A stretch of DNA of 63,788 nucleotides, the filler included, from Hausera hauseri (lineage: Eukaryota): NCBI GenBank assembly GCA_046269625.1. It is 11 parts of 11 records of this genome, joined end to end, with 100 filler letters (N's around TTAATTAATTAA, not from the genome) between each part and the next. Parts side by side here need not be neighbours in the genome. Positions count along the whole stretch, not along the records: positions 18,896 to 23,970 come from JBJURY010343712.1; 10 more parts are not named here. One strand, given 5' to 3'. The notes below the pieces were generated by a model. It did not search any database. It worked only from the letters and a program-made list of their open reading frames with translations, and had not been told where the DNA came from. This document shows positions 5,701 through 44,048 of the stretch, piece after piece. A program made the translations under genes and the position numbers. Numbering within the stretch: the first letter of the stretch is position 1; the number at the start of each line of letters is the position of its first letter.

Positions 5701-7299
5701 TGTGGGGAGAAATTGAGACAGCCAACACAAAGTCAGGAAATTCAGAAAAGACGAAAGATAATTGTTGTATAAACTTTTATAAATCTCATGAATAATTCTA
5801 TTTTACAATCATCAAATGAGATTGAGTTCAGAATGGTAGAGACCCGATCTACTAACATGGCAACCAACGCTTCAAGAGACTTCTTCAAGAAGAAATTGAT
5901 GCCAAAATAATTCCAGAAAGGTGACAACGTGGAAACCTTTATTGGAAAATGCAAGAGATACTTTGACTTCATAAAGATGTCGGAGACTGACCGAAAAACC
6001 GCGGTCCTGTGCCTGTTGGTGCAAGAAGCACAGGAAAAATAACATCTGGTGAGTCAGAAGGTTAAAGGGTACCAAAACGGTTGAGAACAGCCTTTGCAAA
6101 ACCCACAAAGCTGTGCGAATATCTAAGGGAGGCTTTGGACTACAGAATTTGGGGACAGAGCCGGCCTCCTACTTCAACCAAATCGAACAGCTGGTGAAGG
6201 AAATCTTTAGTCACAAAATAACACCGGAAGATTTAATAGAGGAATTGATGATTCACTGTTGTGATTATCCGCACATGAGAAAGGAAATCTACCGCAGTGA
6301 CGGAAAAAGGATAGAACAAATCAAAGCTAAAATAAGGAAAATTTAAGAAGTTGCAACAAAGACTGAAAAGATAAATACAGCCAGAGAATACACTAAAGAT
6401 GGTCGACGGAGTTATCGGGGTGTGGTGGTGCACAAATTTGACAAACCAAGACAAGAAAGGAGGGATTTCAAACTGCTAATTACGCAGGCAAAGAGGATGG
6501 TGAAATGCTGGTCGTGCCAGAAAGACGGGCATACAGGCCGGACATATACCTCCAACATGCACCAAGAGGTTTTGGTTTCGGGAAAGAAGGAGGCATTAAA
6601 AGATATTGCCCGGAAATAAACCTATAATATGCTACGGGTGTGGTCAGCAAGGATACAAGACGAAACTGCATAAACATAAAATGCCACAGATGTCACATTA
6701 CAGGGCACAGGGAAGAAGCATGTTACACAAAATTAGACAAGAGCAGAAGAGGAAAAAATACGAATACGGAGAATTTCAAAAGGGCGGGGTATGGCAAAAA
6801 AGACGTGGAGAGGGCGTGAACAGCAGGCACGCATTCGTTGCAAATATTGACGAAGACTATGAAAAACCCATCACAGAGTCGACAAACCCAAAAGGCAGGG
6901 CATTGACAGAGTGGAGCCTGTCGGGATATTATATTAAATAACGCCAAAGACTCCCAAAGTATTCAAAGGAATGTAAAAGATATTGAAGAAATGAAGGAAA
7001 GAACACAAGAAAAGGTACGGAGATTCATAAAAAAGGAAACGTTTGGGGATATAAACGAAGAAGTACGATTTATAGAAAATCAAAACGAGAGCCTCTATAA
7101 AGAGACCATTTTTTCCTTGGAAGGATTGACGGAAAGAGGATCACGTACGATAAACTATAAGGACAGCCAGGTATAAAAATAAAGATACAAGGTAGATGGG
7201 AAGACTGCCTATTGGACACATAGGCACGGGTGAACGTGATGAGTAGGAAGATTTTTGAAAGATTGATAGATGTTCAGCTGGAGAAATCAGATATCACGC
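5701..7299 (+). mobile_element. Gypsy family B, copy 1: 5' LTR (5701-5857), PBS, multi-CCHC gag, protease start; degenerate and cut by the contig end
   Basis: TGTGG...ACTAACA LTR followed by a TGGCAACCAACGC PBS-like sequence. Zinc knuckles CWSCQKDGH and CYGCGQQG. WEDCLLDT protease motif at ~7200. Co-linear with 29801-31667. Confidence 0.85.
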
Positions 7300-8301: not shown

Positions 8302-10584
8302 TCAAGCGTCCAAGTCCACTTCTTCGGGATCACTGTCGGTTATCGTTGCCCAATCATCGGTAATTCTGATGGTCCTCGTCTTCTTATCATCATTGTTTCC
8401 TAGGTACATTGTTTCTTCAGTCGAAGTAGTTGATCTCAAGCTGGCTTTCAGTCTTTCAAGAATTGTGGTTTGATCCTTTCGTTCCATTCTCGAACGTTCC
8501 TTCCTTTCTGGCTCCAGTATCTCTTTCGTTTTTCCGAAGAGATGTTCGTACTCATCTTCTTTCATCCAGTCATATATGGAATTTTGTATATTCTCCTGAA
8601 TCGTAGCTTTGATAGGCACCCACATAGTTTTCCCGCTTCTTCTTACAAGAAGAGCTGACAACATATAAGCGCTGCTTTTCACATGAATATCGACAATTGT
8701 CCGACTCGAACTAAGCATTATGCAGCGTTTTTCTACATCCGTCTCATGGTTAACTTCTATTCTTAACATGAGTATTTTCTGAGCATCCCGATAGGGTACC
8801 AGGAAAAATTTAGTCCCTTCTGGTTGGTAATACTGGGCTGCTAGCATCTCGTTTCCTGCTGATTCCCAGTCCAATATCTGTTTTTGTCTAATCCCTTGTT
8901 GTATAGTGGCAGTTTTCTCAGGGATAAATTCGTCAATTACGACTGGTATTGTTATCCCATTGAGGAGTGATATTCGTAAGATTCCATTTACTTGTATTTT
9001 CCTTCTTTTTGGGTCCATCATTGCCATGATCAATTGACGCATAAGTTCATTCGTTTCTAAACTTTCGGTTTGAGTCGATATTTGAACTTGCGTTGTCGAG
9101 TCACACTTTCTTTTCAATATTTTCTTTTCTTCGCTTTCCTTTAAATCATCTGTCTCCCCTTCTGATATTTCGCAATTAGGTTCATCGAATTCATCTGGCT
9201 CGATCTTATCTTTTGTTGGAATTTTCTTAATTTCTTTTCCTTTTACTAGAGTGGCCTGGACATCAAATTGCCATTTCATTGTACCAATATATTCCGGTTT
9301 CCGATTCATTAAATCTCCATAATCAAGTATGTTTCCTTGGGAGTCAGTAGGAGTCCATTCATATTAATCGGTAGTTTTCTTGTGAGATTCTATAGTTAAC
9401 TGGAGTCTTCCTTTCGTAGTACTCAAAAATTGTGGAAATTTCAGCATCACTATTATTTGACATAGTTTTCTCTACATTCTTCATGGGGTCCACAACTGCG
9501 CAAGCTCTATTAATCAGTATGCAAAGCACATTAAACGTCTTGTGCGCTTCTAACGCCGCAATTTTGTATCCCAATATAAATTTTGTAACTTCAGCCCTAA
9601 GTTTGGGTGCATCCATTCCGGTTTGAATTTGATTTCAATCTATTCTGTGTCGGTTCCTGTTCAAGTTATGTATTGCTCTTCTTGGGGATATTATTTCGGA
9701 AAAGATAATGTCACCATTTGATTCCGCAATGATGATTTCAATGGGTAATGGAATCTGAGTTCCATTTGATCGTTTTCCATATGCGAAGGAAGTCGCTAGG
9801 TATCTGATGCTCTTAGCTCTGTCAGTTAATAAGATATTGCCTCCTCTTCTTAATTCTTCTTCATTTGGTTCACTTTTAAATTTTATTAGCTCTGGCATTG
9901 AGTATACTCTTTCTGCAACATAAAACTCAATAAAGCCAGTGGTTACATTTCTCTTGATACAGTTGTGATTCCTTTTGGGTCTACTGCATAGTTAATCTGT
10001 AACGATTCCTGATGGTCAATTTTCTCTATTCGATTTTCATTGCCATCTAATTTTTTAAAACTTATCTGACCTCTGCCTAATGCTATGTGAGCTGTTATTC
10101 CTTTATTCTCGTTCATCCATTGTGTGAGAGGGAGGATAGCATCAAAGTGGTATAATTTAAACGGCAGTAGACATCTGTTCCTCGTTTCACCATATTTGAA
10201 GTAATTTGGGAGTTTTGAGACTTCGTCAATAAATTGATTATCCTGATCGAGATGCGTGATTATTTTGTCGTAAAATGTGTACGACATAGTTTGGCGAATT
10301 ACGGAAAGTTTCCTATTTCCTTCTTTGTCATCTGTTTCTTTGTTTGTTCCGCTTCTTTGTCCAGAATCCTGAGTGCTTCCCGTTTAGGGAGCGTTTGCGA
10401 TAACTCGCCTGGAGCTTGAGTTTCCTGTTTCAGGAGCGTTGATTCCTTTTTTTGATGCATTCAGGCTTCCCATTTCGGGAGCATTGTTCTGGTTTCTTAA
10501 TTTCAGGCTTCCCATTTTGGGAGCATAGTTCTGTCTTCGTGGCAAGCTTCCCATTTCGGGAGCATTACTCTGATTTTGTGGCAT
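8302..10584 (-). pseudogene. Retroelement 3' accessory ORF (~760 aa when rejoined): NAPEMGS repeats, DEDDh exonuclease-like domain (~9830-9530), unknown C-terminal domain
   Basis: ORF pieces 10584-10384, 10287-9943, 9898-9635, 9616-9359 and 9309-8302 join through in-frame stops and two frameshifts. IIFSEIISPRRAIHNLNRNRHRID*NQIQTGMDAPKLRAEVTKFILGYKIAA resembles the REX4/ISG20-type DEDDh core. Confidence 0.6.
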
Positions 10585-14460: not shown

Positions 14461-14934
14461 AAAGTCCCAGCGTTGTAATTGTTGATCTGTTCAATCAGGG
14501 TGGTGAACATTAGAAAGGGCGTTCTGCGCCTTCGGAATGGTTGGCGTTTGACTGTCTAGTTTTGTAAAGTCCCTTAGGCTTTCATAATTCAAAAAGGGTG
14601 CCGCTCCAGTCTCTGTAGCCTTTTTTGTTGGCTCGAATAAAGCAAGGTTATGACGATCGAGCTCAATTTTAACGATGAAATTATACATAATTTTGGGACC
14701 GTTTATTATGGCTTTGGTTGGTGTAATTAAAAAGCAATATAATAGATGCACCGACCTTTTTGTTAGTTGTTTTTCGGTAATAACTACTTCGGGACGTAGT
14801 CTGATGATTTCGGGACAGTTTCTGGACGTGTTGCTCTTCTAGTGTACGAATCATGTTTATTTGATTCATTATTTCGTTGGATGTTTGTGATTCGCCTTTT
14901 TTATATTCAATGGGCATATCCATCAAAAGGATTC

Positions 14935-15477
14935 TTGGATTTTCGACTCTCCAAACAAGTTCTCGTTTTTGTCTAGCATCTTGCCAACTGTACATCACTG
15001 AGTGATTTGCGGGTAAAATTAATTTTTGATTTGTTCCTACTTGTTTGTAATGTATATCCATATTACCACCCAAATGATTTATCAACTGAACCAGTGCCAT
15101 ACCATCTTGATAGAGTTGTAAAACGATTAAATTCGCTTCTTCTATAATTTGAACTTCAACGAAAATTCCGATAAATTTCTTTTCCAAATTCATCAGTATC
15201 GAATGTGATTCATAAAATAGAAACGGTTGTGTAACAAGAATTTCCGACTGTTCGACTTTGCAACGCATCAGCATAGACTTATCCACTTTCGATCTAGACC
15301 AAAATGGTACTGCTTCACCAGACGGTACTGGTATCCAACCGACGTCTTCGATGATCTCATTACAATACAGTGTCACATCAGATTGATTTATAATCATGTA
15401 ATACGGTAAAAATGTGACAATTTTAGTCAAACCACTGCTGGATAAATTAATTTTTACTCCAACTTCATAAGTCATCG
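14935..15477 (-). pseudogene. VPS13: Intronless internal fragment of VPS13 (VPS13A/C-like adaptor-binding/SHR-BD repeat region)
   Basis: YEVGVKINLSSSGLTKIVTFLPYYMIINQS...VPFW...YQDGMALVQLINH...LPANHSVMYSWQD..RELVW matches the VPS13A/C segment from YQVGVTIDLSS to YTWADP..RRLKW. Confidence 0.85.
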
Positions 15478-16305
15478 GTTTCTTTTGTGCTTCGGTAATG
15501 ATTTCATTCAGAAGCTCGTTTTGCTGGCTATCGACTGTCTGGCCAATTTCGTTGACTGTGAATCAGAATATATTCCCCAACTTCCTGGAACGCTGTAGCA
15601 TATGTACTACCGGTAAAGTCCATTATTTTTATGTTCATCAGAAATCGGTAACTTCTTCGTTGCATTTTTCTTTTGGGCAAGCTTTATAGACCATTTTGGT
15701 CTCGTTTATGGAAGCTACTATGCTTCGAACTTGTAAATATTCCCCTTTATCGTCATTAGATGAACAGCATATCTGTTTCACCGTTACAGATTTGTTGTAG
15801 AAATTTCCCGTGGAAAATGAAGTGTTTTGACTAACGGAAAAGCTTTCATTTTCTTGGAACGTTGTAACAATGGCGCCTTTCAGAACAATCACCGAATAGG
15901 TATTTTCTTCAACACGATCAGAATGATCACTCCACAAAGTCAATCAAATAGTTGATTCACTGCAATCCAGTAAAACTACATCTCTTTTGTGTACTTCTCG
16001 ATTTTGTTTTGCTATCATTAAGGTTGTAGCAGGACCACCACTGTGAGCAATATCTGCAATATCTATGAAACTGCATTCGGGACGTTGTAAAACATCACAA
16101 ATAGCCACAAAATTATACATTTGTACTTTAAATTGAACGGTACCACTTAATTCAACAATCTCGATATCGTTTCTCATCGAAACTTCATATTCACTCTTCG
16201 TATTGCGATACTGCGGATTGGCTTGTTTAACATTTCCATTTGAGACGGAATAAGTTTTGCCTTCTTGTATTAAGTTGCAATACATGTCTACAGCTTCATT
16301 TGCAT
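15478..16305 (-). pseudogene. RPA1: Intronless, disabled RPA1 (RPA70) fragment spanning the end of DBD-A, DBD-B and a deleted DBD-C
   Basis: NEAVDMYCNLIQEGKTYSVSNGNVKQANPQY, REVHKRDVVLLD..*LTLW, YKACPKEKCNEEV and DFTGSTYATAFQEVGEYIL. Contains stops and internal deletions. Confidence 0.88.
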
Positions 16306-17159: not shown

Positions 17160-18795
17160 CATGAATTTTACAATCGACACTAGTAGTGGCAAGACGCAAT
17201 GATTCATTAAGCGAACTATGATAGCGATATTAAAGGCATCCATTTGATCGTAAACCATTTGCTTCAGAATTGCAACGTTATTTGCAATATACGAGCCATT
17301 ATGTTTTATAAATTTGAAATAAGAAATCCAGGCAAACAAATAAACGATTACAACTTGACATTTCGTAAAATCCTGACTAGTTGCAGCTGGACTGCGGTGG
17401 CACTCGAGCACGCAGCACCACACTACCCCCTGTTATGGAATGACACTATCGGTTGGCAAGCAAAAAGACAAAGTAGTTAGGTGTAGACGAACTATTGAAA
17501 GAAGCATTTTTTGATGTGATTGAAACAGAAACGTGGAAAGAATACGTTTTGTGGACTATTGCATCTTTGTATGGACAAGGCGTTGAATTTTGTCGACATT
17601 CTGTTCACTGCTGTATTTGCTAAAAGTGACTGTTTTGTGTTTTTTACTGTCATGTTTGATTGTTTGTTGAGATGGTTGGAAGAAAGTTAAATTTTGATTT
17701 GACGTGTCAGCAGCTTGAGAACTAGTTGGTATGTCGTTTTGCGTTGTCTTTTATATTGATGAAGGTTTTGGAGTATCAGGTTGTCGTGCAGGTAGAATGT
17801 GAGAAGAATTGAAAGAATCAAGGAAGTTTTGTGTGGATTCAGCTTAAGATTTCGGTGTATCATCGACGAAGAATGCAGGTTTTACGTTATTTATGTGTAC
17901 GTTTTGCTCTTTATCGTTTCTGAGTATGGTGACCGTGTGTGAACTTAGGTTGAGAACTTTAAATGGTCCTAAATAGTTTGGTTGGAATCCTGCAGGTGAA
18001 GGGTTTTTTATCCAAACAAATTTTGCGTTGAATAGTGAATCAGGTAAATATATTTTATCGCCATGTAATATTTTGCAGAAAGAATCCTGGCTTAACTGAA
18101 CGAAGGGATTTTGTGCAAATATAATTGTTTTGTCAGTTTGTGTGTTGTCCAAGTCGGTGAGCTCAAAAAGTGCCCGAATTGTGGTACCAAAAAGTGCTTC
18201 AGCAGGTGCGCAACCGGTGGTGGTAGACGGCGTGTTGCGCCAACCGAGTAAGAGAAAAGGGAGGATAGTTGTCCAATTCTTATGAAATTTGGCCAGGATT
18301 CTTAGCGAAATCTTGAAAGGGCGATAAAAGCGTTCTAATAAGCCGTTCGACTGGGGATGGTATGAAGTTGTGTGTATGTGATTTATGCCCAGTCGATTAA
18401 CTAGAGATTTGAATAGGTTCGATTTAAATTGGGTACCTTGGTCTGTAATTATATGGCGAGGTGAATCGAACTGGCTAATCCAAATCCTTATGAATGCATC
18501 GGCAATCGAGTCTGTGTTGATGAAGTACAAAGGGACGGCTTCAGGTCAACGAGACGCGCAGTCCATCATTGTTAAAATTAATTGGTGGCCGTTATCGGAA
18601 GGTAATGGGCCAACGATATCTATATGAACTGACTCAAAACAAGATGTACATGGAAAATGAAATAATGGTGGTTTAAGCTATTTAGCGACTTTGAATTTTT
18701 GGCAAGCTACGCATTGCCTAACCCAACTCTGTACATCAGACCTCATTGATGGCCATGTTACGTGACGTTTGAGAAGGCGGAATGTAGCCTTGGAA
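17160..18795 (-). mobile_element. Gypsy family A integrase, PPT (17423-17431) and 3' LTR starting at 17422 (distal LTR end undefined)
   Basis: VHIDIVGPLP, ITDQGTQF, HPQSNGLLERF and YLGPFKV motifs. GGGGGTAG precedes TGTGGTGC. Closely similar to 60990-62350. Confidence 0.92.
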
Positions 18796-19187
18796 NNNNN
18801 NNNNNNNNNNNNNNNNNNNNNNNNNNNNNNNNNNNNNNNTTAATTAATTAANNNNNNNNNNNNNNNNNNNNNNNNNNNNNNNNNNNNNNNNNNNNGGAAC
18901 AAAAGGGCTTATAATTGGCGTAAATATTGTGATGACATCTGCAACTGTTTTCGAAATCTTGGTGTGGCAATTTAGATAATTATAAATGTATATTTCCTGG
19001 ACAAATCGTCGCGTATCTCCGGGACGGTAAAGTGTATTAAAATTTTGGAATGTCTCCATTATTAGGTATCTTTAGGCCAGTAAACTGACACTAAAATTTT
19101 TTCTTTATCTTTAGTCGTTTCCTAGATATTTGCGTTTCTTTTCTACAAAGAAAATGTTTCTTTTTTCCGGACTTTTTATCCGATATT

Positions 19188-20254
19188 AAATGATCCAACA
19201 GAGACAGTTTAGTGTTCTTGTAAGTTTCCTTCCCGAATTGCACAGTGGCATAGAAATGACCTTTAGTGACGCAGTTAAGATGAATTGTTGCCATGGAGAT
19301 ACTTACTTTGGAAGACGTAATCGACCATCCGTGTTTAAGTGCAATGTCAGTCGAGATGTAACTTTTACAACTGCCAGTATCGATCAGAGCGTTGAGTGAT
19401 ACTCCATTGACCAGAATCTTCACTATGGAATTTGAAAGGCCAGTTTGAGATCTGGTTGCTGTCACAGCGGAAGTTAAAGCACTGAGAGTAGACGCCCTTC
19501 GCTTAGGTTTTGATCTGCATACTCTTTGGTAGTGCCCTTTTTTTCCACAGGAATTGCACGTGGCGTCCTTAGCAGGGCATTTAGAGCGGAAATGCCTGTT
19601 GTTGCTTCCACAGAAAAAACAAGTGAATGTCCTAGACATGGCGGCGCTTACTTCATCTTCATTCACGCTTTCGGTATTAGGCACCGGAGGGATCGCGGCG
19701 ACTGAAGCCTCAGCGGGGGTATTGGAAGACGCCTCGAAGCACATAATATGATGTAAAGCGTACTCCATGGTCCGAGCTTCTTCAAAAGCTTGTTGTAGAG
19801 ATAGAGAAGTTTTCTCCAACAGCCTTTGTCGGATGGCGTTGGACGTCAAACCCGCTATGAAGGCGTCGCGTATTGCTTCTTCTTTCCGTACTTCAGCCGA
19901 TACTTGCTTGAAGTTACAGTCTCTCGCTAAGCTCCGTAATTTCTGCAAATACTGATCAAGAGACTGTCCCTTTTCTTGCTTTAGAGTTGCCAGTTGGTGC
20001 CTGGCAAAAACTTCATTTTTAGGTTTGACGTAAATACCGCTGAGTGTCTCTACTATCTGTTCGAACGTTTTGCATTCAGCCACTATCTGATAAACGGCAG
20101 GGCCAATAAAATTGATAATCAGCTTCTTCTTGTCTACGTCAGGGCAGACAGATACAAAGTTATCGAATGTCTGCAACCAATGCGTCCACTTTTCTGAAGC
20201 GGAGGGGCTGTATGGGTCAACATCGAAGCGTTCCGGTCGAAGTAGTCTCTCCAT
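19188..20254 (-). mobile_element. Gypsy family C, downstream tandem copy: gag and protease, truncated at ~19188
   Basis: MERLLRPERFDVDP...W.HW..TF, the CFFCG..H.R..CPA...C..CGKKGHY..VC knuckles and LIDTGS. Co-linear with 23150-23970. Confidence 0.93.
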
Positions 20255-20355
20255 TTTGTAATAGTAAGAAAAGTCACTTACTCAGCAGTTAAATCTCCAT
20301 AGTAGAAATAAAGAATGAAATGAAATCCAGTTAAGAAAAATGTAGTTGATTAAAT

Positions 20356-20541
20356 TGTAATAACAGTAAGTAACAAAAGTAACACAATGCCACAAATCCA
20401 GATAATTTTGGCTTTAATCAACTACAAAATATAAGTTACATATCAACTGGTCAGACCACCAGCTACACACACAATGGACGACGTGAACACGCGATAACAC
20501 AGAAATACAAAACAGTTCACAACAAACAAACAATCATGACA
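20356..20541 (-). repeat. LTR (~186 bp) shared between the two tandem family C copies
   Basis: PPT AAAGAGGGGGTGAA immediately precedes TGTCATG (20541). The LTR ends TTATTACA (20356), contains ATTAAA, and the gag ATG follows ~100 nt downstream. Confidence 0.85.
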
Positions 20542-20710
20542 TTCACCCCCTCTTTGATATTTTCAAAGTCTTTTTCTCAAATTGTAGGAATGGGTCGGTG
20601 GGGGTCTGCTTTGGTCATCTGTAACGGAAGGGTTTGGACTTATTGAAGGGTTTGGAACTGGAACTATTCTAGAATGATTCCCTTCAGAGTTAGCAGCTCT
20701 GTTTCTTAAG

Positions 20711-23700
20711 TTATAGGAATGTCTTGTCTTCAGCATCAGGCACCACCTCCGATGGCTTTTCTCGAACGGCAGTTGTCCGTGTATGTGTATTACTTTCTAC
20801 GGCGATCTCACCCGAAACGTCGGTTTCGAGTGCAGGTACCTCTGAGAGCTGTGTACTTCTAGCTGGCGCTCGAGCCAGTCGATGTAAAGATACAGTCTCT
20901 TCTCGGCCGTCGGACAGGCGCCCGTGTGCGTAAAGTGGATTACATTCAAGCAGTTCCGCTTCTTCGACGAGGGAGTCATACTTTGAAGTTCTATCCTGTT
21001 TCTGCAGCAGAACTGGGCCTGGTTGTGTAAGCCACGTAGGAATGGATACTCCAGACGTTGACTTGCGATTGTAACTAAACAATCGCTCATGTGGTGTAGC
21101 GTTTGTAGATGTACAGAGAAGTGATCTTATGGAGTGGAGGGCGTCAGGTAGGACGGCCTCCCATTGGGCGATTGGCATGCCCCTAGACTTTGTAGCTAAC
21201 GTAATAGTCTGCCACAGAGTCCCATTCAGTCTTTCAACTTGGCCGTTGGCCCGAGGGTTATAAGCGGTAGTGCGGCTTGTACAGATTCCCTTTGAATGTA
21301 AGAATGTCTTGAGCTCATCAGACATGAATGAAGTGCCTCTGTCAGAGTGCACGTAAGAAGGCATCCCAAAGATAGAGAAAAGCTGCCATAGACATTTAAT
21401 GACAGTGGCCGACGAAATGTCGGAACAAGCAAAGGCGAAAGGGAATCTAGAATATTCGTCAATAATTGTTATAAGGTATTTGTTGCGGGTGCATGATGGC
21501 AGAGGACCTTTGAAGTCAACACTTAGTCTTTCAAATGGCTGAGTAGCTTTAATGAGAGGCCTAAGAGAGTTCTTTACGAAACGCGGTTTGACTTCAGCGC
21601 AAACTTCACACTGGTTGATGACAGTCTTAATGTCTTCAGCTGCAAAGGGTAAGTTTTTGGAGCGAACGAAATGTAACATTCGAGTTACACCAGGGTGACA
21701 AAGTGTGTCATGCAGCTGCCGAAGATCAGTTCTAGACATTGCTGATATATAGTTATTTGTATATAAGGCATCTGCAGCCTTGTTTTGTTCTCCAGGTCTG
21801 TACTGGACATCAAAATGAAAGCAAGAAAGTTCAAGTTTCCATCTCTGAATTTTATCATTCTTAATTTTCCCTTTGTGCTTTTGATCGAACATAAAGGCTA
21901 CCGACCTCTGGTCAGTGATTAAGGTAAAGTGCCTGCCGATTAAGTAGTGCCTCCATTTTCTCAGAGCTTCCACTATCGAAAAAGCTTCTTTCTCTATAGC
22001 TGGTAAGTGCCTCTCGCTTGAAGATAAGGTGCGAGAAAAGAAAGCTACTGGCCGACCATCTTGATTGAGGGTAGCAGCAATGGCTACATCAGATGCATCC
22101 GTCTCAACTACCAATGGGCGGTTGTAATCTATAGTGGACATGGCGGCTGTGGCAAGTTCATCTCTGAGATCATCAAATACTGTTTTTATATGGTCGGGTA
22201 GAGGAAATATCTGATTATGAACCAGATGATGTATTCTTTCAGAGAAGCGAGGGATCCACTGGGCGTAGTAAGCCAGCAAACCTACAACTCTCCTTTGAGC
22301 TTGTAGATTATGTGGTGGAGAGAGATCTTTTAAAACTTGAAATCTTTCAGGATCGGGCTTGAGTGATCCATGGGTTACTTCGTAGCCGAGTAGACGAACA
22401 CTGGAGGCAGAGAATGTACTTTTAGCTTCGTTGAATGTGATCCCCCGTTTCTTAGCAGCGTTCAAGAATCTTTGAAGATTTTGATTGTGGTGCTGTTCAT
22501 CATGCCCACAAATCGTGACATTATCCACGTAAGCATACGTGTCCTCGAGCCCTTCTTCCTTGATAAATGCGTCAATTGTCCTTTGAAAGCTGGCAACACC
22601 ATTTGTGACACCAAAAGGTATCCTGCGAAATTGATACAGCTTGCCGCCAGTTTCAAATGCAGTGAATGGACGTTCCTCCTCCCTAATCGGTATCTGGTGG
22701 AAAGCACTTTGTAAGTCAAGTGTGCTGAAGACGGAGTATTTTGAGATCTCTTCTACCATCTCATCAATCCGAGGCAGCGGGTACGCGTCGAGAAACGTGT
22801 AGCGATTGATAGTTTGACTATAGTCAATCACCATCCTTATCTTATGTCTCTCGTTAGTCGTGACTAAAACTTGAGCTCGCCATGGGGATTCTGAGGGCTC
22901 GATAATCTCATTTTTCAATAGTTCATGTATTTCCTTTTCAATGAACTGTTTGTCCTGGACAGAGTAGCGACGTGACTTAGTAGCTATAGGAACACAGTCA
23001 GGAGACAGGTGTTTAAACAGATATGGAGGGTCAACTTTAGCAGCTTCCAACGCACAGATTCGGAACTCCGGTCGAGTTCCACTGAAAGGAAAAATAACCT
23101 TTTCATGCAGGCTCAGAAAGTCAATGCCTAGGATAACATCAGCACACAAATGATCCAACAGAGACAGCTTAGTGTTCTGATAAATTTCATTACCATATTG
23201 CACAGTGGCAAAGAAATGACCTTTAGTGACGCAGTTGAGACGAGAAGAAGCCATGGAGATACTAACTTTGGAAGACGTAACCGACCATCCGTGTTTAAGC
23301 GCAATGTCGGTCGAGATGTAACTTTCACAGCTGCCAGTATCGATCAAAGCGTTGAGTGATACTCCATTGACCAGAATCTTTACTATGGAATTTGAAAGGC
23401 CAGTCTGAGATATGGTTGCCGTCACAGAGGAAGTTAAAGCACTCAGAGTGGACGCCGGCCCTTTTTGTTTTGACCTGCATACTCTTTGGTAATGTCCTTT
23501 TTTACCACAAGAATGACACGTGGCGTTCCTAGCAGGACATTTTGAGCGGAGGTGCCTGTTGTTGCTTCCACAGAAGAAACACGTGAACGTCTTAGACATG
23601 GCGGCGCCTATGTCAGATTCCTTCACGCTTTCGGTACTAGGCGCCGGGGGGAGCGCGGCGACTGAAGCCTTAGCGGGGGTATTGGAGGACTCCTTGTACC

Positions 23701-23970
23701 ACATAGTATGATGTAGAGCGTATTCCATGGTACGAGCTTCTTCAAAAGCTTGTTGTAGAGTTAGAGAAGTTTTCTCCAATAGTCTTTGTCGGATGGCGTT
23801 GGACGTCAAACCCGCAATGAAGGCGTCGCGTATTGCTTCTTCTTTCCGAACTTCAGCCGATACTTGCTTGAAGTTACAGTCTCTCGCTAAGCCCCGTAAT
23901 TTCTGCAAATACTGATCAAGAGACTGTCCCTTTTCTTGCTTTAGAGTTGCCAGTTGGTGCCTGGCAAAAA
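20711..23970 (-). mobile_element. Gypsy family C near-intact single-ORF gag-pol (gag CCHC, PR, RT, RH, IN); 5' end lost at the contig break
   Basis: Uninterrupted ORF of 1065+ aa: LIDTGS; SPWRAQV, DAYPLP, IPFGV and YVDN; ETDASD and DHRS-like TDQRS; H..LCHPG...CEVC; VDFKGP, SDRG and NGQVER. Confidence 0.97.
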
Positions 23971-24070
23971 NNNNNNNNNNNNNNNNNNNNNNNNNNNNNN
24001 NNNNNNNNNNNNNNTTAATTAATTAANNNNNNNNNNNNNNNNNNNNNNNNNNNNNNNNNNNNNNNNNNNN

Positions 24071-29800: not shown

Positions 29801-31667
29801 TGTGAGGAGGAATTGAAACTGATATTAACGTTTAAATGTAAATCAAAGATAATTAAATAAACAGCCAACAGAAAGTTAGACAATTCAGAAAAGAAGGAAA
29901 ATAAGACTCATTCCCCGAGTGAAGGAGATAAATCTTATATAAAACTTTTGTAATAAATCGATTATGGATAATTCTATTTTACAGTGATCAAGTGAAGTTG
30001 ATGTCGGGACGGAAGAGATGCGATCTACTAACATGGCGACCAACGCTTCAAGAGACCTCTTCGAGAAAAAATTGATGTCCAAAGAATTACAGAAAGGTGA
30101 AACGTGGAAACCTTTATTGGAAAATGCGAGAGATACTTCGACTTCATAAAGATGCCGGAAACGGACCGAGAAACCGCGATTCTGTGCCTTTTGGCGGAAA
30201 AAGCACAGAAAAAATACAGTATAGTGAGCCAGAAAGTGAGAGTGTACCAAAAATGGTTGGGAAAAGCCTTTTCAAAACCCACAACGCTGTGTGGAGATGT
30301 GCATGAGGCCTTGAACTACAGAATGAGGGGGACAGAGCCGGCCGCCTACTTCAACAAAATCGAACAACTGGTGATGGACATCCTTAGCCACAAAATAACA
30401 GCGGAAGCTCTAACAGAGGAACCGATGATCCACTGTTGCGACAATCCAGAGATGAGGAAGGAAATCTCCCACAGTAATGAAAAAAAAGTAGAACAAATCA
30501 AAGAGAAGATACGGAAAGACCACGAAGTGGCAACAAAGACGGAAGAGATAAACACAGTCACAGAATACACTAAAGAGGGTCGACGGAGTTACCGGGATGT
30601 GGTGGTGCACAAATTTGACAAACCAATACAGGAAAGAAGGGGTTTCAAGCTGCACAATACGCTGGCAAAGAGTATGATGAAATGCTGGTCGTGCCAGAAA
30701 GACGGGCATACATGCAAGACATGCAACTTCCAACATGCATCAAGATGTTTTGGCTGCGGAAAAGAAGGACACATTAACGGGAATTACCAGGAAAGGAAAC
30801 CCATAATATGCTATGGGTGGGGTCATCAAGGACACATAAGACGAAACTGCATAAACATAAAATACAATACATGTCACAATAGAGGGCACAGGGAAGAAGC
30901 ATGTTACACAAAATTGGACAAGAGCAGAAGAGGACAAAATACGTATGCCGACAATTTCAAAAGGGCGAAGTATGGTCAAAAAAGATATGGAGAGAGGTTG
31001 AACAGCAGGCACACATACGTTGCAAATATTTATGTAGATTATAAAGAATCCATCATCGATTTGACAAACCCAAAAGGCGGAGCCTCGACAGAAGTGGAGC
31101 CAGTCGGGGCATTATATCAAACAACTCCAAAGACTCCAGAAATATTCAAAGGAATGGACAAGGTATTGAAGAAATGAAGGAAGGAACACAAGAAAAGGTA
31201 CGGAGGTTCATAAAAAGGAAACGTTTGGGGACAGAAACGAAGAAGTACGATTTGCAGAAAGTGAAAATGACAGCCTTCATGAAGCGAGGGTTTTTCCTCT
31301 GGAAGGATTAACGGAAAAGAGTATCACGTACGATAAACTACAAGGACGGCCAAGTATAAAAATAAAGATGCAAGATAGATGGGCAGACTGCCTATTGGAC
31401 ACGGGGCACGGGTAAACGTGATGAGTAGGAAGATTTTTGGAAGATTGACACATGTCCGGCTGGAGAAATCAGATATCATACTCCGTTGTGCAAATGGTAG
31501 CTCCCTAGACTGCATGGATGACCTGTCCGTAAATGTGGACCTCAAGGGAGTACAGAAGCGCGTAACTTTCATAGTAGTGACAGACATATTACCAGAAATA
31601 ATAGGAGGAATGGAACTACAAAAGACTTTTGGAATCGAATTAGGTTGGAGACAGAAAGACGAAGAGA
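29801..31667 (+). mobile_element. Gypsy family B, copy 2: 5' LTR (29801-30033), PBS TGGCGACCAACGC, gag with four CCHC-type knuckles, protease
   Basis: ORF 30104-31177 carries CWSCQKDGHTCKTC, CFGCGKEGH, CYGWGHQGHIRRNC and YNTCHNRGHREEAC. DCLLDTGARVNVMS spans a frameshift at ~31385-31420. Confidence 0.9.
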
Positions 31668-31767: not shown

Positions 31768-34300
31768 AAAGTTAATCTGTAAATTATGGTGGTGAAGGCG
31801 TTGGAATATTGAGCGAAGATGTTCTTCATGCTGTTTTGCGGAAGGTGAAACGAGTAGAATGTCGTCGATATAGGGGTGTGCGAACAAGAAATCGGAAAGA
31901 ATTGAATCGATGTGCCGATGAAAAGTTTGTGCGGCATTCCGCAAACCGAATGGCATAAATAGATATATGTAGAGGCCAAACGGAGTAGTTACTGCGGTTT
32001 TTTCAATGTCTTCAGGTGCTACAGGTGTTTGATGGTAGGCTTTAGCTAGATCAATGGTGGAATAGATGATGGTTGAATTAAGGCGATGAGAGATATTCTT
32101 GATAAGTGGTAAAGGATATGCGTCCATGATAGTCAAGTTATTAAGCTGTCGGTAGTCACCGCATGGTCTAAAGGTACTGTCCTTCTTTTATACGACGTGT
32201 AAAGGTAGTGACCAAGGAGACTTGAAACGGCGTACGATGCCGGAGCGTTCTAGCTCAAGAAATTAGGCTTTTACGGCCTGTCTACGGCGAGGTGACCGAG
32301 GCCGTACTTTTTGGCATTTTGGACGTTGGTGTTGTGTGACTATGTGGTGTAAGGTGCTGTCTGCGGGAGTAAAAGTACGGTCTTTTTTAAGTACGCGTGG
32401 GCAAGATGTGTTAATGAACTGTTGTAAAGTTGTAGGTAGCTGTGAGAGATTCGGTGAAAGTGATGAAACAGCTTGAGCAGTAGCAGATGCAATTTGTGAG
32501 TTGTTAGATGCTGTGCAGTCATGTGGTATTTGGTGCAAGATTGTTGAATTGGAAATGGTGTTGGCTGAAGTATTTTCGTCGAAGGAGTGAACGTTGGTGG
32601 CAGTACCACAATTGTTGACATTGAACTTCGATCAAATGTCAGTATTATTATTTAAAAATTTACGAATAGAATTATCGTTATAAAAAATCAAATTATTCAC
32701 AGACTTTTTTAATACTGACTTCCGCATTCCGGTCAACTGCGCGGTAGTTGAAATGCTATTTATATGCTCAGAAATGCGGCCAGTAGTGCCGTTCCTGAGA
32801 CATCGTTGGCTGCAGTCAACCAGTAGATTATAATGTTTAAGAAAGTCAGATCCTAGAATTGCCGACTAAACGTTAGCGACAGTGAACGTCCAGCGGAAAG
32901 GTGTTGGAAAATTTGGAAGAGTGAAAGATAATTTAGCCATGCCTGAGATTTGCAGCGGTTGGCCCGAAGCAGTGTATAAGGGCCTAAGTTTGAATGGAGA
33001 GTTTTGAACATAAAAGGTTTGCGGTAATAGAGAAATCGATGCACCTGTGTCAATAAGAAAGTCAACAGATTGAGTAGTAGGAGTAGTAATTGCAGACTTT
33101 AAAGTGAAAACAGCGAAGGAGACGTGTCGGCGTTCAGAATGTGAAGGAGTGCCTTTGCCAGAGTTTGACGTGACCTCTGGCGGCGAAGTTAAATTTTTTG
33201 AAAAGGTGAATTAGGGCGACTATTAGAAGAAAAGGCAGTACGTCCGTCATTCGTGTTGAATTTGAAAGTGCAGCCTGGAAGACATTTACGAGCTTGATTT
33301 TTGAACTTTGCATGGTAGATGCAGATAACGGTGTCCGAGGAAAACTTCTGATTATAAAACTTGCATCCTAGGCAGCACTTCTGGGCATTAGCGTTAAATC
33401 TGCTGTGATAATAGCAGTTTCGTGACGCAGAACGGGTACGGTCAGCGACAAAACCCCTCGTCGGGACAAGGATAATTTATTTAATTTATTATTGATGTTA
33501 TTTATAGTTGCCCGCAGTGCAATATTTTCAGCACGTAGCTGAATAAGCTGTTGTTCTATTGGCGTATTAGTTGTCTGAATGTCGATAGCGGCAACTGCTG
33601 CTGAAACTATTGGTTGAGAATTTGTGTGTAGGACATCGTATGTCCTATCGGCCAATTTGGCCAATTTATGAAGTGGCGTGGAGTTTCCCACCACGGTAAG
33701 AAGGGCCCGTATTTGAATAGGTAGGGCATTCAGAAAATAATGGCGTAGAAGATCTGGATTATGCTCCGTAGTTACTCAGAGTACGCAAATGTGCTAACCA
33801 GGTGCGTAGGAAGTCACTGGGTTTTTGTGTTCCCAGTGCATTTTCATTAAAGAAACGTTGCATTATGGAGTCAATTGAAGGTTCGGTATGTTTTAAGACA
33901 GCGTCGAATAATTGAGTATAAGGGTCAGGGTGTTGAAAGATGTCTAGCAGGTTATGTATTGAGGCTTTTATTGAGTTGGGGAGAAGATAGAGTAAACTGT
34001 GGGCTTTAGATAAGGAGTCTGTGATACCATTAGATTGTAGCCAGAGTTGATGGAAGTGAAGCCATGTTTTACTGGACTTTTCATTATCTATGAAGTATTC
34101 AGTGCAGTGTGGAGTATTGGTAGGATTTTTGTGGGGATTTGCATCGATTGAAGGAGATGGAGGGTTTGGTTTAAAGTAGTAGAGAATGGGTATTGGCTTT
34201 TTGTGGTGGTTGTATCCGTGGTGTCAATAGTTGGTGGGGAATTCATTCCATCACGGATACGGAGATGTATGTTGAAGCAAGCATTATTTGAAAAAGAAGG
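31768..34300 (-). mobile_element. Gypsy family A gag-protease-RT (degenerate)
   Basis: RT motifs DAYPLP..IDLAKAYHQ..TPFGLY..MPFGLRNAAQTF..PYIDD, and gag motif LHKLAKLADRTYD. Confidence 0.92.
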
Positions 34301-37984: not shown

Positions 37985-39801
37985 NNNNNNNNNNNNNNNN
38001 NNNNNNNNNNNNNNNNNNNNNNNNNNNNTTAATTAATTAANNNNNNNNNNNNNNNNNNNNNNNNNNNNNNNNNNNNNNNNNNNNTACACAGAAATTATTT
38101 TCTGTTTACAAACTATGTCATATTATCAAAATATTTTCAAAAGCTTTTAGGTTTGCTGCTTGCCGGAATCAGAACCAAGTGTCGTAGGCCCACAGAGGAA
38201 AAGTATACCTAACTTGAATATATATTAAAGAATTGTTGAATGATAAAGATTTTTTGTTATACTAATTGTTTTTAGTAAAACAGTACCTGAGGAAGCAAAA
38301 TGTTAGAGAAATTCATCTAAAATATAAAAATGTAACGTTTTGATTGTAATAATCTAGTATGCTGTGTAAAATCATGTTGAAATATTATTTGGAATTTTTC
38401 GCTGAAAGTTAAAATTGTACCAATTAAAATTTGAGACATGATGGACAAATTGAGCATATCAGAATATAAATTTTAATTACATTCACATTATTTATTATTT
38501 ATTAATACATAGTCTGACAAATAAATTCGGAGACTGTATAATAAATTAATACATTATGTAATTGAAATTAAAATTTGTTCATTGACTTGTATTTTACGCA
38601 CTTAGTTTAATTTTCCCATTTCACCAGTGTTTTAATTTCCTGTAAACGCATAACATTAAAATTACCTTATCTCTGTAAATCTTCTTTCTGGTGTATGAAA
38701 AGAACATTGCTAACGATATACTGAACACAGCGAACCCAAGAAAAATTAATACGCAATGGATCTTCGTAATATTTTGATCGCTTCCATATGATGTTAAATT
38801 TTTATATATCTGAGGGACACATGAGTTCATTTTGTTTCTTAATTAGAGTCGAATATCGATTATTTATATTCATGCTAAACTTGGATGAATTTTACTCTGA
38901 AAAATATTTCATGCAATGATCCAATAAAAACAATATTGAGATTTTATTAGCCATAGTTGCAGGCGAAAAGAAAAACAATTTCATTTCGTCACACAGTCAA
39001 ACAAATTCAGTAATTGTGATTTTTGTAGTTCATATAAAACTGAACTCTCAAAGAAAACTCCAAATTTCAACAAAACAAATTTACTGAACGTTTGCTACAA
39101 CTTTGATACAGTGAAATCAGTATTTGATTCTTGACGGATAAATAGAGTTTTTGCAGCATAATACAACTGTAATGAATAAATTTTGATTTCATTTACATTA
39201 TTATTTAGTCTGAAAATTATGTAAATGAAATTAAAATTTGTTCACATGCTTCGTTTTTATGAAGCTATGCCCAATTTGTACGTAGATTGTTTGAAACATT
39301 GAATTAATTGAAGCGTGGTTTTTAAACATGATGAAAATTTCAGAGAATGACCTTTAAATTTGATAAGTAATATTTTTTGTTTACATATTAAATTGTCGGG
39401 CAGAGCCATCATCGGGTCCTTGTGGAAAAGTCAAATTTTATTCATTTGTCTAAAAAGCTTGGTGGCTTAATTATTTTGCAAAACTCAAACAAAATGCATG
39501 TTATGTATATACACTAGACAAATATTGGCTAAGTTTCTCATAAATTAAGTGCAACGCCATTTAAAAAGAATTTAGGCNNNNNNNNNNNNNNNNNNNNNNN
39601 NNNNNNNNNNNNNNNNNNNNNNNNNNNNNNNNNNNNNNNNNNNNNNNNNNNNNNNNNNNNNNNNNNNNNNNNNNNNNNNNNNNNNNNNNNNNNNNNNNNN
39701 NNNNNNNNNNNNNNNNNNNNNNNNNNNNNNNNNNNNNNNNNNNNNNNNNNNNNNNNNNNNNNNNNNNNNNNNNNNNNNNNNNNNNNNNNNNNNNNNNNNN
39801 N

Positions 39802-42800
39802 CTCTCCCTCTCCCTCTCCCTCTCCCTCTCCCTCTCCCTCTCCCTCTCCCTCTCCCTCTCCCTCTCCCTCTCCCTCTCTTTCTCTCTGTCTGTCTGTCTG
39901 GCTCTGTCTCTGTCCTTGTTTCTGTCCCTGTCTCTGTCTCTGACTCTGTCTCTGTTTCTGTCTCTTTCTTTCAATGTCTCTGTCTCTGACTCTGTCTATC
40001 TATCTATCTCACTGTATCTCTCTCTTTTTCTCTCTCTGTTTCTGTCTCTGTCTTTCTGAAGCTGTCTCTGTTTGTCTCTCTGTCTCCCTGTCTCTCTCTC
40101 GATATCTGTCTCTATCTATATCTGTCTCTGTCTCTGTTTCTCTGTCTCCCTGTATCGCTTTCCCTCTCTCCCACGCTGTATCCTCTCTCTCTGTCTCTTT
40201 GTCTCGCTCACTCTCTTCGTCTCTCCCTCTCTCTGTCGCTCTGTCGCTCTGTCTCTGTCTCTGTCTCTGTCTCCGTCTCCGTCTTTGATTCTGTCGCTCT
40301 CTCTCTCTCTCTCTGTTTTTCTGTCTCTGTCTCTCTACCTGTGTCTCTCTGTCTCTGTCTATGTTTCTGTCATTCTTTGTCGCTCTCTCCCTCGCTCTCT
40401 GTCTCCATGTTCCTCTCTTTTTCTCTGTCTCTCTGTCTCTCTGCCCCTGTCCATGTCTCTGTGTATCTTTGTCTATCTGTTTCTCCCTCTCTCTGTCGCT
40501 ATGTGTCTATCTGTGTGTCTCTGTTTCTCTTTCACTCTCTCTTTCTCCGTCCCTCCGTCTCTCTGTTTCTCTCTGTCTCTCTTTCTCTCTGTCTTTCTCC
40601 GTCTCTCTATATCTGTCCCTGTATGTCACTCTCTGCATCTCTCTATCTGTCTCAGTTTGACTCTCTGTCTCTCTGTCTCTGTCTCTGTCTATCTCTCCAT
40701 CTTTTTGTCTCCGTCTCTCTGTCTCTGTCACTGTCTCTCTTTCTCTCTGTCTAACTTTCTCTCTCTCTGGCTCTCTCTGTCTCTCTCTCTGTCTCTCTGT
40801 CTCTATCCCTATCTCTGTGTCTCACTGTCTCGGTCTCTGTCCCTGTCTATCTATCTCTCTCCCTGTCTCTCTCTCTGTATCTCTCTGTCTCTTTCTGTGT
40901 CTGTCTCTCTGACTCTGTCTCTGTTTGCCTCTCTTTCTCTCTCTCTGTTTCTCTCTCAATCTCTCTCTCTCTCTCTTTGTAGCCATCTCTGTCTCTGTCT
41001 CTGTATATGTCTCTCTGTCTCCCTGTATCGCCGTCTCTCTCTCTCTCTCTTTCTCTCTCTCTCGCTGTCTCTTCTCTCGCTGACTCTTTGTCTCTCTCTC
41101 TCTTCGTCTCTCTCTCTCTGTCGCTCTGTGTAGCTCTGTCTCTGTCTCTGTCTCTGTCTCTCTGTTTCTGCATCTGTTTCTCTTTCTCACTCGCTGTCGC
41201 CCTCGCTCTATGTCTCCATGTCTATCTCTCTCTTTGTCTCTGTCTCTCTGCCCCTGTCTAAGTCTCTGTGTCTCTATATCTATCAGTCTCTCTCTGTCTC
41301 TATGTTTTTATATCTGTCTCTCTGTCTCTTTTNNNNNNNNNNNNNNNNNNNNNNNNNNNNNNNNNNNNNNNNNNNNNNNNNNNNNNNNNNNNNNNNNNNN
41401 NNNNNNNNNNNNNNNNNNNNNNNNNNNNNNNNNNNNNNNNNNNNNNNNNNNNNNNNNNNNNNNNNNNNNNNNNNNNNNNNNNNNNNNNNNNNNNNNNNNN
41501 NNNNNNNTTCCTCTGTCTCTTTCTCCCTTTGTCTCTGTCTCTGTCTATGTCTCTCTTAATCTCTGTCCCTCTCTATCACTGTCTCTGTGTGTGTCTATGA
41601 CTCTGTGTCTCCATGCCTCGCTGTATCTCTCTCTCTCTCTCGCTATCTCCCTCACTCTCTGTCTCTTTCTCTCTTCCTCTCACTCTCTTTGTCTCTCGCT
41701 TTTTGTCTCTCTCTGTCGCTATGTCTCTATCTCTGTCTCTCACTATGTCTCTGTCTCTTTCTCTCTCTCTCACTCGCTGTCTGCCTTTCTCTCTGTTTGT
41801 CTCTGCTCTCTCTGTCTCTTTCTATCTCTCGGTCTCCGTCACTGTTTCTGTTTGTCTCTCTCTGTCTCTCTGTCTCTGTATCCGTTTGTCTCTCTGTCTC
41901 TGTCTCTTCGTCTCTGTCTTTGCCTCTGTTTCTCTGTCTCTCTAACTGTCTCTCTCTTTTTATCTGTACTCTCTCTGTCTCTCTGTCTGCCTCTCTCTGT
42001 CTCTCTCTCTCCGTTTCTGTCTTTTTCTCTGTTTCTTTCTCTTTCTCTGCGTGTGTCTCTGTTTTTTTCTCTCTTTCTCTGCCTGTGTCTCTGTTTTTTT
42101 TTCTCTCTCTCTATATATCTCTCTCTGCGTTTCAGTCTCTGTTTGTCTGTCTCTGACTTTTTCTTTGTTTCCTCTCTCTCTTTCTTTCTATCTCTCTGTA
42201 TGTTCCTGTTTGTCTCACTCTGCCTCTCTGTCTCTGTTCCAATTTCTGCTTGTATCTCTATCTCTCTCTGTCTCTGTCTCTCAGTGTCTCTCTTTTCCTC
42301 TGTTTGTCCCTCTATCGATCTCTATCTGTCTCAGTTTGCCTCTCTGACTTTCTGTCTCTGTCTCTCTCTTTGTCCCTGTCTCTCTGTGTCTCTATCTCTG
42401 TCTCACTCTATCTGTCTCCCTTTCTCTCTTGCTGGCTCTATCTCTCTGTCTGCCTCTGTCTCGGTCTCTGTCTCTGTCTATGTCTCTGCCTCTATCTCTG
42501 TCTTTTGGTCTCTGTCTTTCTGTCTCTGTCTCTGTCACTGTTTCTCTCTCGCTCTCGCTTTCACACTTTATCAATGTCTCCCTCTCTCACTCTCTGTTTG
42601 TATTTATGTCTCTGTCTCTCTGTCTCTCTCTGTTTCTCTTTCTCTTTCTCTCTCTCTTCCTCTCTGTCTTTCTGTCTCTGTCTCTCTGTCTCTGTCTTTG
42701 TTTCTCTCTCTGTCGCTGTCTCCCTCTCTCTATATCTCTATGTCTCGCTCTCTCTTTGTCTCTTTCGCTGTCTCTCTCTCTGTCTGCCTCTCTCTTTGTC

Positions 42801-43871
42801 GCTGTNNNNNNNNNNNNNNNNNNNNNNNNNNNNNNNNNNNNNNNNNNNNNNNNNNNNNNNNNNNNNNNNNNNNNNNNNNNNNNNNNNNNNNNNNNNNNNN
42901 NNNNNNNNNNNNNNNNNNNNNNNNNNNNNNNNNNNNNNNNNNNNNNNNNNNNNNNNNNNNNNNNNCTCTATCTCTGTCTCTGTCGCTCCTTCTCTATGTC
43001 TCTCTGTCTCTCTGCCTCTCTCTCTGTGTCTCTCTGTGTCTCTCTCTCTGTCTTTCTGTCTGTGTCTCTCTATCTCTGTCTCTGTGTCTGTTTGTCTCTG
43101 TCTCTCTCTCTATCTGTTTCTGTTTGTCTCTCTCGCTCTCTCTGTCGCTTTCTCTGTCTCTGTTTGTCTGTCTGCTCTGTCTCTCTCTCTATGTCTTTCT
43201 GTCTCTGTCTCTGTCTCTCTCTGTCACTGTCTCTGTCTCTGTCTGAGTCTCAATCTTAGTCTCTGTCTCTGTCTCCCTGTCTCTCTCTTTTTCTGTCTCT
43301 CTCTCTCTGTATCTGTCTTTGTCTCTGTCTCTGTATGTCTCCCTGCCTCTCTGTCTCTGCCTCTCTGTCTCTGTCTCTGTTTCTCTATCTCTCTCTGTCT
43401 TTGTCTCTGTCTCTCTGTCTCTATGTCTCTCTGTCCCTATCTGTCTGTCTGTCTATTTCTCTGTCTGTCTGTCACTCTCTCTCTCTCTTTTTGTCTCTGT
43501 CTCTCTGTCTCTGTCTCTTTCTCTCTATCTGTCTCTGTCTCTGTCTCTGTTTGTCTCTCTCTGCCTCTTTGTATCTGTGTCTGTTTCTCTCTCCCTCTCT
43601 CTCGATTTCTCCCTCTGTGTGTGTGTCTCTCTCTTTCTTTGCCTCTATCTCTCTGTCTGACTATCTGTGTGTCTCTTTATCTCTCCGGCTCTGTCTCTGT
43701 CTCCCTGTCTCTCTGTCACTCTGTCTCGCTCTCTCACTTTCCCTCACTCTCTCTCTATCTCTCTGTCTTTCTGTCTCTGGCTCCCTCTCTCTGATTGTCT
43801 CTGTGCCTCTCTGTCTCTGTCTGTCTGTCTCTGACTATGTTTCTCTCTCCCCCCCTATCTCTCTCTCGCTG

Positions 43872-43948
<77 letters not shown>
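39802..43948. repeat. Long degenerate (CT)n/(CTCTGT)n/(CTCTCC)n polypyrimidine simple-repeat tract with internal N gaps
   Basis: The + strand is almost entirely C/T with interspersed G. There is a perfect (CTCTCC)n run at 39802-39875 and (CT)n at the right end. Confidence 0.97.
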
Positions 43949-44048
43949 NNNNNNNNNNNNNNNNNNNNNNNNNNNNNNNNNNNNNNNNNNNNTTAATTAA
44001 TTAANNNNNNNNNNNNNNNNNNNNNNNNNNNNNNNNNNNNNNNNNNNN

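Follow-up and report, generated by a model that had tools for sequence, protein, structure and literature searches.

How does a retrotransposon begin reverse transcription when the primer-binding site (PBS) just inside its long terminal repeat (LTR) looks nothing like the usual landing place of a transfer RNA (tRNA)? The question is raised by an element on the minus strand of a 63,788-nucleotide (nt) stretch of Hausera hauseri DNA (assembly GCA_046269625.1, 11 parts joined end to end; "the window" below), within the part that comes from JBJURY010343712.1. This compact Ty3/gypsy retrotransposon has no chromodomain and one open reading frame (ORF), and, judging from its sequence and that of its relatives, it likely primes minus-strand DNA synthesis with its own 13-14 nt LTR arm and not with a tRNA. 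Four features carry the argument:

20413..20426, minus strand: predicted self-primer arm of the LTR, complementary to the PBS; ends in ATTAAA, with an initiator-like AG at 20423-20422.
20341..20354, minus strand: predicted PBS, one base (A20355) past the LTR end, without TGG.
20356..20541, minus strand: LTR, 186 nt, TGT...ACA, bounded with the help of the polypurine tract, a depth step in the contigs of sequencing run X1, loose ends at 20356 and a single blastn hit.
20389..20412, minus strand: hairpin P2 (GCCA...TGGC), which opens at the base after the arm, so that the predicted cut falls between 20413 and 20412.

The minus-strand sequence is TTTAATCAACTACA at 20354-20341 and TGTAGTTGATTAAA at 20426-20413; these are exact reverse complements over 14 nt, as an earlier note on this DNA had claimed, with no extension at either end, and the second-longest stem within 20560-20250 is 8 nt. 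When the LTR was shuffled with its dinucleotides preserved, 14 nt was reached in none of 20,000 shuffles and 13 nt in three. Among 16,956 sampled 185+22-nt sub-windows of the whole stretch, 14 nt occurred twice, both times at this same locus read on either strand. When the RNA is folded (z -2.1), the stem formed by arm and PBS is also its principal helix. The earlier note was right, too, that no TGG tRNA-type PBS lies inside the LTR and that the paired LTR segment overlaps ATTAAA, since this hexamer makes up the last six letters of the arm.

Could such a pairing be a product of chance or of assembly at this one locus? The window has many gaps, and the tandem with a common LTR in which the element sits (see below) could be a collapsed join, both of which lend the suspicion some substance; against it stand the shuffles, the presence of arm and PBS on one X1 contig, and the like anatomy found in dozens of families. 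That contig (20343-20439, zero differences) spans the full arm and 12 of the 14 PBS letters, so the pairing was not created by an assembly join. X1 is the only DNA run found with matching contigs and is perhaps the source of the assembly, and therefore it is not independent support; its variants at 20419, 20425 and 20342, in arm and PBS, include no paired change and were not used as evidence. We give an accident at the window locus practically no credence. For the pairing itself such an origin is already refuted, and the complementarity of arm and PBS at this locus is confirmed as a real feature.

Related loci were collected via a gag alignment (n = 84: 80 from metagenome contigs, being the best 80 of 183 confirmed, and four from genome contigs), and, clustered jointly with the window at 80% gag DNA identity, they fall into 41 families; six of these, with less than 120 nt of upstream sequence, were set aside, leaving 35 testable. 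Pairing of at least 10 nt was found in 28 of these 35 families (best member) and in 50 of 75 loci, compared with 4 of 620 control positions in the ORF and 27 of 1190 swapped upstream regions. Where an element has both LTRs, the repeat closes with CA and the PBS begins one base later, and the spacer is a single base in 27 of the 30 families that have the stem. The mean pairing length of a PBS is 14.1 nt with its own LTR and 4.0 nt with a foreign one, only 10 of 870 foreign combinations reaching 10 nt. For counts by column we used 32 families, namely the 30 with a stem of at least 9 nt and two short contigs that still hold it; their PBS sequences comprise 30 distinct 12-mers, and none of the 32 has TGG. 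At least 10 nt of complementarity, 0-5 nt behind the 5' LTR, is the pattern by which the plant elements Tcn1 (gypsy) and TAR (copia) have been predicted to be self-primed (PMC6317226), and the same pattern, directed at the element's own LTR, is present in the window (14 nt) and in 28 of the 35 families; unlike this clade, Tcn1 and TAR live in plants, and they belong to the chromoviruses and to copia, respectively.

A PBS without TGG might instead bind a tRNA half or some other host small RNA, the match to the LTR being secondary, and half-tRNA priming of this kind is known in some copia lineages (PMC6317226, PMC5445492). A host RNA would hardly call for 30 different 12-mers in 32 families, each fitting its own LTR and not those of others, and Rfam gave no match at E <= 1 in 20200-20700, admittedly a weak test for 14 nt; we regard this explanation as highly improbable. 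A scan of the window for tRNA genes with ARAGORN came up empty.

The two sides of the stem change together. Positions 3-9 and 11 are Watson-Crick paired in all 32 families, and when changes were placed on the gag tree, at least 86 double-sided changes were counted over positions 1-13 versus 11 non-pairing cells. RNAalifold, applied to a MAFFT alignment of the 26 of 32 families with loops of 30-60 nt, recovered the same 13 pairs, 12 of them with double-sided change, so the compensatory change between PBS and LTR across families that had been proposed as a check is there in abundance. Out of 416 cells, 405 are Watson-Crick, two are G-U and nine are mismatches, the G-U count being lowered because the 32 families came from an exact-match search; a mismatch-tolerant search, which took 65 of 79 loci, gave 808 Watson-Crick, 14 G-U and 23 mismatches, whereas its control hits gave 270 Watson-Crick and 110 G-U. 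Within one family, locus L021 stands apart from the eight other members through a single arm letter, altered in each of its two LTRs, and through the PBS letter that pairs with it. The near absence of G-U and the paired change in L021 fit a PBS that would be rewritten from the primer in each round of copying; the Tf1 primer reportedly stays on during reverse transcription, to go by the title of one reference. Because the PBS pairs exactly with the element's own LTR while the letters vary between families, the group likely begins its copying with its own RNA as the primer.

Pairing of this kind could in principle serve only as a regulatory hairpin that masks the poly(A) signal of the 5' LTR, with some other primer in use. 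AATAAA or ATTAAA does end the arm in 18 of 32 families, and pairing is possible at the 5' LTR only, just as masking would demand. This account names no primer, however, while the sole PBS position is taken by the complement; and since 12 of 32 families keep the duplex although neither their arm nor the sequence after it contains such a hexamer, masking of the signal can be no more than a secondary function. Moreover, an ordinary RNA helix should allow G-U, as hairpin P2 does in its closing pair (G-U in 12 of 23 families), and the arm duplex does not. P2 starts at the base after the arm in 23 of 32 families (in 2000 shuffle rounds the mean was 2.3 and the maximum 8) and was not a selection criterion for the family set; the base after the arm is unpaired with the spacer in 31 of 32. 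We consider a purely regulatory duplex very unlikely and prefer priming to any hairpin without it, because the complement lies exactly where the minus strand has to begin, a spot that offers a primer no other place to bind.

How priming would proceed can be drawn from Tf1, which anneals to its PBS through the first 11 bases and is cut by RNase H between bases 11 and 12 (PMC7175516). Transcription of the H. hauseri element would begin with the arm or slightly within it (20426-20423), the RNA would then fold its 5' end onto the PBS, and the element's RNase H would cleave behind the arm (20413/20412), where hairpin P2 has its foot, a site that the covariation set predicts exactly. The freed 3'-OH would prime copying of U5 and the remainder of R, and plus-strand synthesis would later copy the primer, so that any change in the arm would be written into the PBS. 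As a likely by-product, pairing would mask the ATTAAA poly(A)-like signal of the 5' LTR and leave that of the 3' LTR free.

We think it probable, then, that the element works like Tf1, yet it is not a Tf1/sushi chromovirus. It shares with Tf1/Tf2 (Schizosaccharomyces pombe), Tj1, Tosmo/Tcry and the Tf1/sushi group the Ty3/gypsy domain order, the lack of a tRNA PBS and a PBS behind the LTR that is complementary to a short LTR segment (PMC7175516, PMC4600332, PMC10085805). Unlike them, this clade lacks a chromodomain, has an RNA duplex of 13-14 nt versus 11 nt in Tf1, an arm that ends in a poly(A)-like hexamer and the reverse transcriptase (RT) motif YxDN, and is found in hosts across invertebrate phyla. 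Tf1 also requires two duplexes flanking the primer:PBS helix, the so-called pretzel (PMC10085805), and here the description "Tf1-like" given by the earlier note has to be divided: the primer:PBS duplex is present, the two flanking duplexes were not found, and a different, local hairpin follows the arm at the predicted cut.

Several observations weigh against self-priming from a Tf1-like 5' end, or at least against the evidence for it. The search for the flanking duplexes, limited to ungapped helices, gave own-family values for leader and U5 end of 10.8 and 9.7 versus cross-family values of 11.2 and 10.1 (standard deviation 2.5). Seven of the 35 testable families fall below 10 nt: two reach 9, in one (L048) the match has decayed to 11 of 13, and in four no arm can be recognised. 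The 32 families were picked by exact-match search in the first place, and resolution of the gag tree (identities 38-82%) is weak, good support being limited to 7 of 29 inner branches. There is no positioned TATA box upstream of the arm. Finally, the start-like motif does not coincide with the end of the stem: an initiator-like AG lies at positions 11-10 (A in 21 and G in 26 of 32 families) and the commonest pyrimidine-purine start motif at position 11 (14 of 32), while pairing covaries at positions 12-13 (28 and 30 of 32) and runs 2-3 nt beyond the AG, and the outermost paired base is T, an unusual start base, in 17 of 32. Pairing is at least 13 nt long in 27 of 32 families and often 14-18 nt.

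These lengths suggest that either transcription begins further up, or the primer derives from the 3'-LTR copy. In the latter case the start would be at the AG, position 11, and the arm would be taken, together with the preceding U3 letters, from the element's own 3' end or from a co-packaged RNA, which would account for covariation at positions 12-13 and for stems of 14-18 nt despite a start-like motif at 11. This variant of self-priming has no precedent in the literature surveyed, insofar as main-text passages show, and a cut behind the arm of the 3' copy would strip off most of R, on which strand transfer depends; a simpler account is that starts at positions 13-16 are dispersed or fall on pyrimidines. 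We hold a primer from the 3'-LTR copy to be unlikely, and the same holds for its broader form, a pan-animal, non-chromoviral Gypsy lineage with its own way of self-priming, in which a 13-18 nt arm from the 3'-LTR copy would be primer, poly(A) signal and strand-transfer acceptor at once and would be cut at a conserved hairpin foot by a YxDN RT. Three contigs that begin at the arm (L019, L029 and L052) were considered as evidence for the start site and rejected, because the 77, 55 and 55 LTR letters that they hold correspond to common assembly word sizes, 55 and 77 being such sizes.

The rest of the element consists of the following parts:

20546..20555, minus strand: polypurine tract of the upstream copy, 4 nt ahead of the LTR, recognised from its sequence.
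20711..23968, minus strand: upstream copy, open gag(part)-protease-RT-RNase H-integrase frame of 1085 amino acids (aa), chromodomain-less.
22520..22531, minus strand: RT active-site motif YVDN, in the frame of the upstream copy.
19091..20254, minus strand: downstream copy, gag and protease, from the ATG at 20254; similarity to the upstream copy stops at about 19188.

Domain order (gag-protease-RT-RNase H-integrase), a TG...CA LTR and a polypurine tract before the 3' LTR place the element in Ty3/gypsy; the window ORF includes an RNase H domain, and the closest relative of solved structure is Ty3 Gag-Pol (E 1.9e-54). The sole complete LTR copy in the window serves both as the 3' LTR of the upstream copy and as the 5' LTR of the downstream copy. 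At both bounds of this LTR the depth of X1 contigs steps up, and two contigs continue into other flanks at 20356. The upstream copy lacks its 5' end, which is missing at the gap 23971-24070. The two copies are 90.3% alike across 823 nt, 3960 nt apart, and beyond about 19188 there is other repeat DNA. The part 18896-23970 thus presents tandem copies about 90% alike with one common LTR, which may be a true tandem or a collapsed assembly join; which of the two it is does not affect the pairing of arm and PBS.

At least 961 relatives of the polyprotein were found, the best 120 being 50-67% identical to it and mostly about 1200 aa long in a single frame. Those with species names are all from animals (snail, nematode, two flukes, woodlouse and damselfly, with coral among the cluster members), and no chromodomain was found in the window ORF, is listed for the best 120 relatives, or appeared at E <= 0.1 in any of the seven relatives scanned, so that the description of the element as a chromodomain-less metazoan gypsy was borne out. 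Members of the cluster bear generic names only, from which no clade name was obtained, and the viral contigs scanned held no relative of the element. Four relatives (L081-L084) sit in contigs filed under bacterial metagenome-assembled genomes, a placement that is probably due to eukaryotic contamination. One family is unusual in its LTR of 884 nt (L001:540-1440; most others have 150-310 nt), and its PBS runs into the gag start codon. Target duplications of 5 bp were seen in 7 of the 10 related full elements printed. YxDN replaces YxDD at the RT active site of 90 of the 120 best relatives, a useful tag for the clade, and 117 of the 120 have a double Cys-His knuckle, a feature associated with the Mag cluster.

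Compared by description, the clade resembles the Mag cluster (Mag A/B/C, SURL), Cigr-1 and MolGy1-16 in its animal hosts and short LTRs, with ends as listed for Mag C (PMC3601003, Table 3). The CsRn1 clade is excluded because its tRNA-Trp PBS, CHCC knuckle and 4-bp target duplication (PMC2582038) differ from those of this clade; the knuckle of Saci-2 is described as CCCH. Literature on the Mag lineage, YLDN, Cigr-1 and Saci-2 yielded no match to this anatomy, and the main text of PMC6238403 mentions neither PBS nor tRNA. A natural YVDN in place of YxDD occurs in RTs of nematode BEL/Pao elements, Cer7-Cer12 and Atlas virus (PMC554778, PMC9094657); its presence both in BEL/Pao, another superfamily, and in this clade is likely convergent.

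In the literature surveyed, self-priming is linked with Tf1/Tf2/Tj1 and with Tf1/sushi chromoviruses from fungi, vertebrates and non-seed plants, and it is predicted for TAR copia. For Anopheles Gypsy elements the main text of PMC3026039 covers neither PBS nor self-priming, and self-priming is likewise absent from that of PMC2774666. A full-text literature search, which covered main-text passages and had supplements, most subscription papers and Repbase Reports outside its reach, found no description of self-priming in a non-chromoviral animal Gypsy. Repbase entries reportedly apply the term self-primed to some Gypsy families of animals (mosquito, sea anemone, frog), and these may include the present clade; there is a fair chance that the clade has been noted before in repeat databases. 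To our knowledge, Tf1-type elements of yeast are the only ones for which self-primed reverse transcription has been demonstrated experimentally. If the present reading is true, tRNA-free priming arose or survived more than once, here in a widespread animal lineage that stands outside the Tf1/sushi chromoviruses and differs from them in its RNA architecture. Which of hairpin priming and tRNA priming is the older is an open question in the field (PMC3601003), on which a self-priming animal lineage would bear. Self-primed elements would also be beyond the reach of tRNA-fragment silencing at the PBS, and they would be missed by element finders that demand a tRNA PBS.

Elsewhere in the window, the ten 100-nt gaps (e.g. 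23971-24070 and 18796-18895) each consist of two 44-N runs around a 12-nt spacer, TTAATTAATTAA where read, and three more plain N runs lie inside the 39.5-44 kb repeat, a long array (39500-44000) of 8-14 nt units with extreme strand skew. Another Gypsy family is present as two inverted copies (17523-18795 and 59582-62291) that are 75-89% alike and about 27-42% identical to the polyprotein of this clade, and additional RT fragments lie near 1344-1649, 31771-32322 and 55664-56244. A pair of direct repeats (5718-7296 and 29861-31478), 79-92% alike and 24.2 kb apart along the stretch, ends in a protease-like frame. An ORF at 14681-15562 on the minus strand matches the VPS13 adaptor-binding domain (E 1.7e-07), and at 10460-10577 a 37-nt unit is repeated three times, the copies being 81-89% alike.
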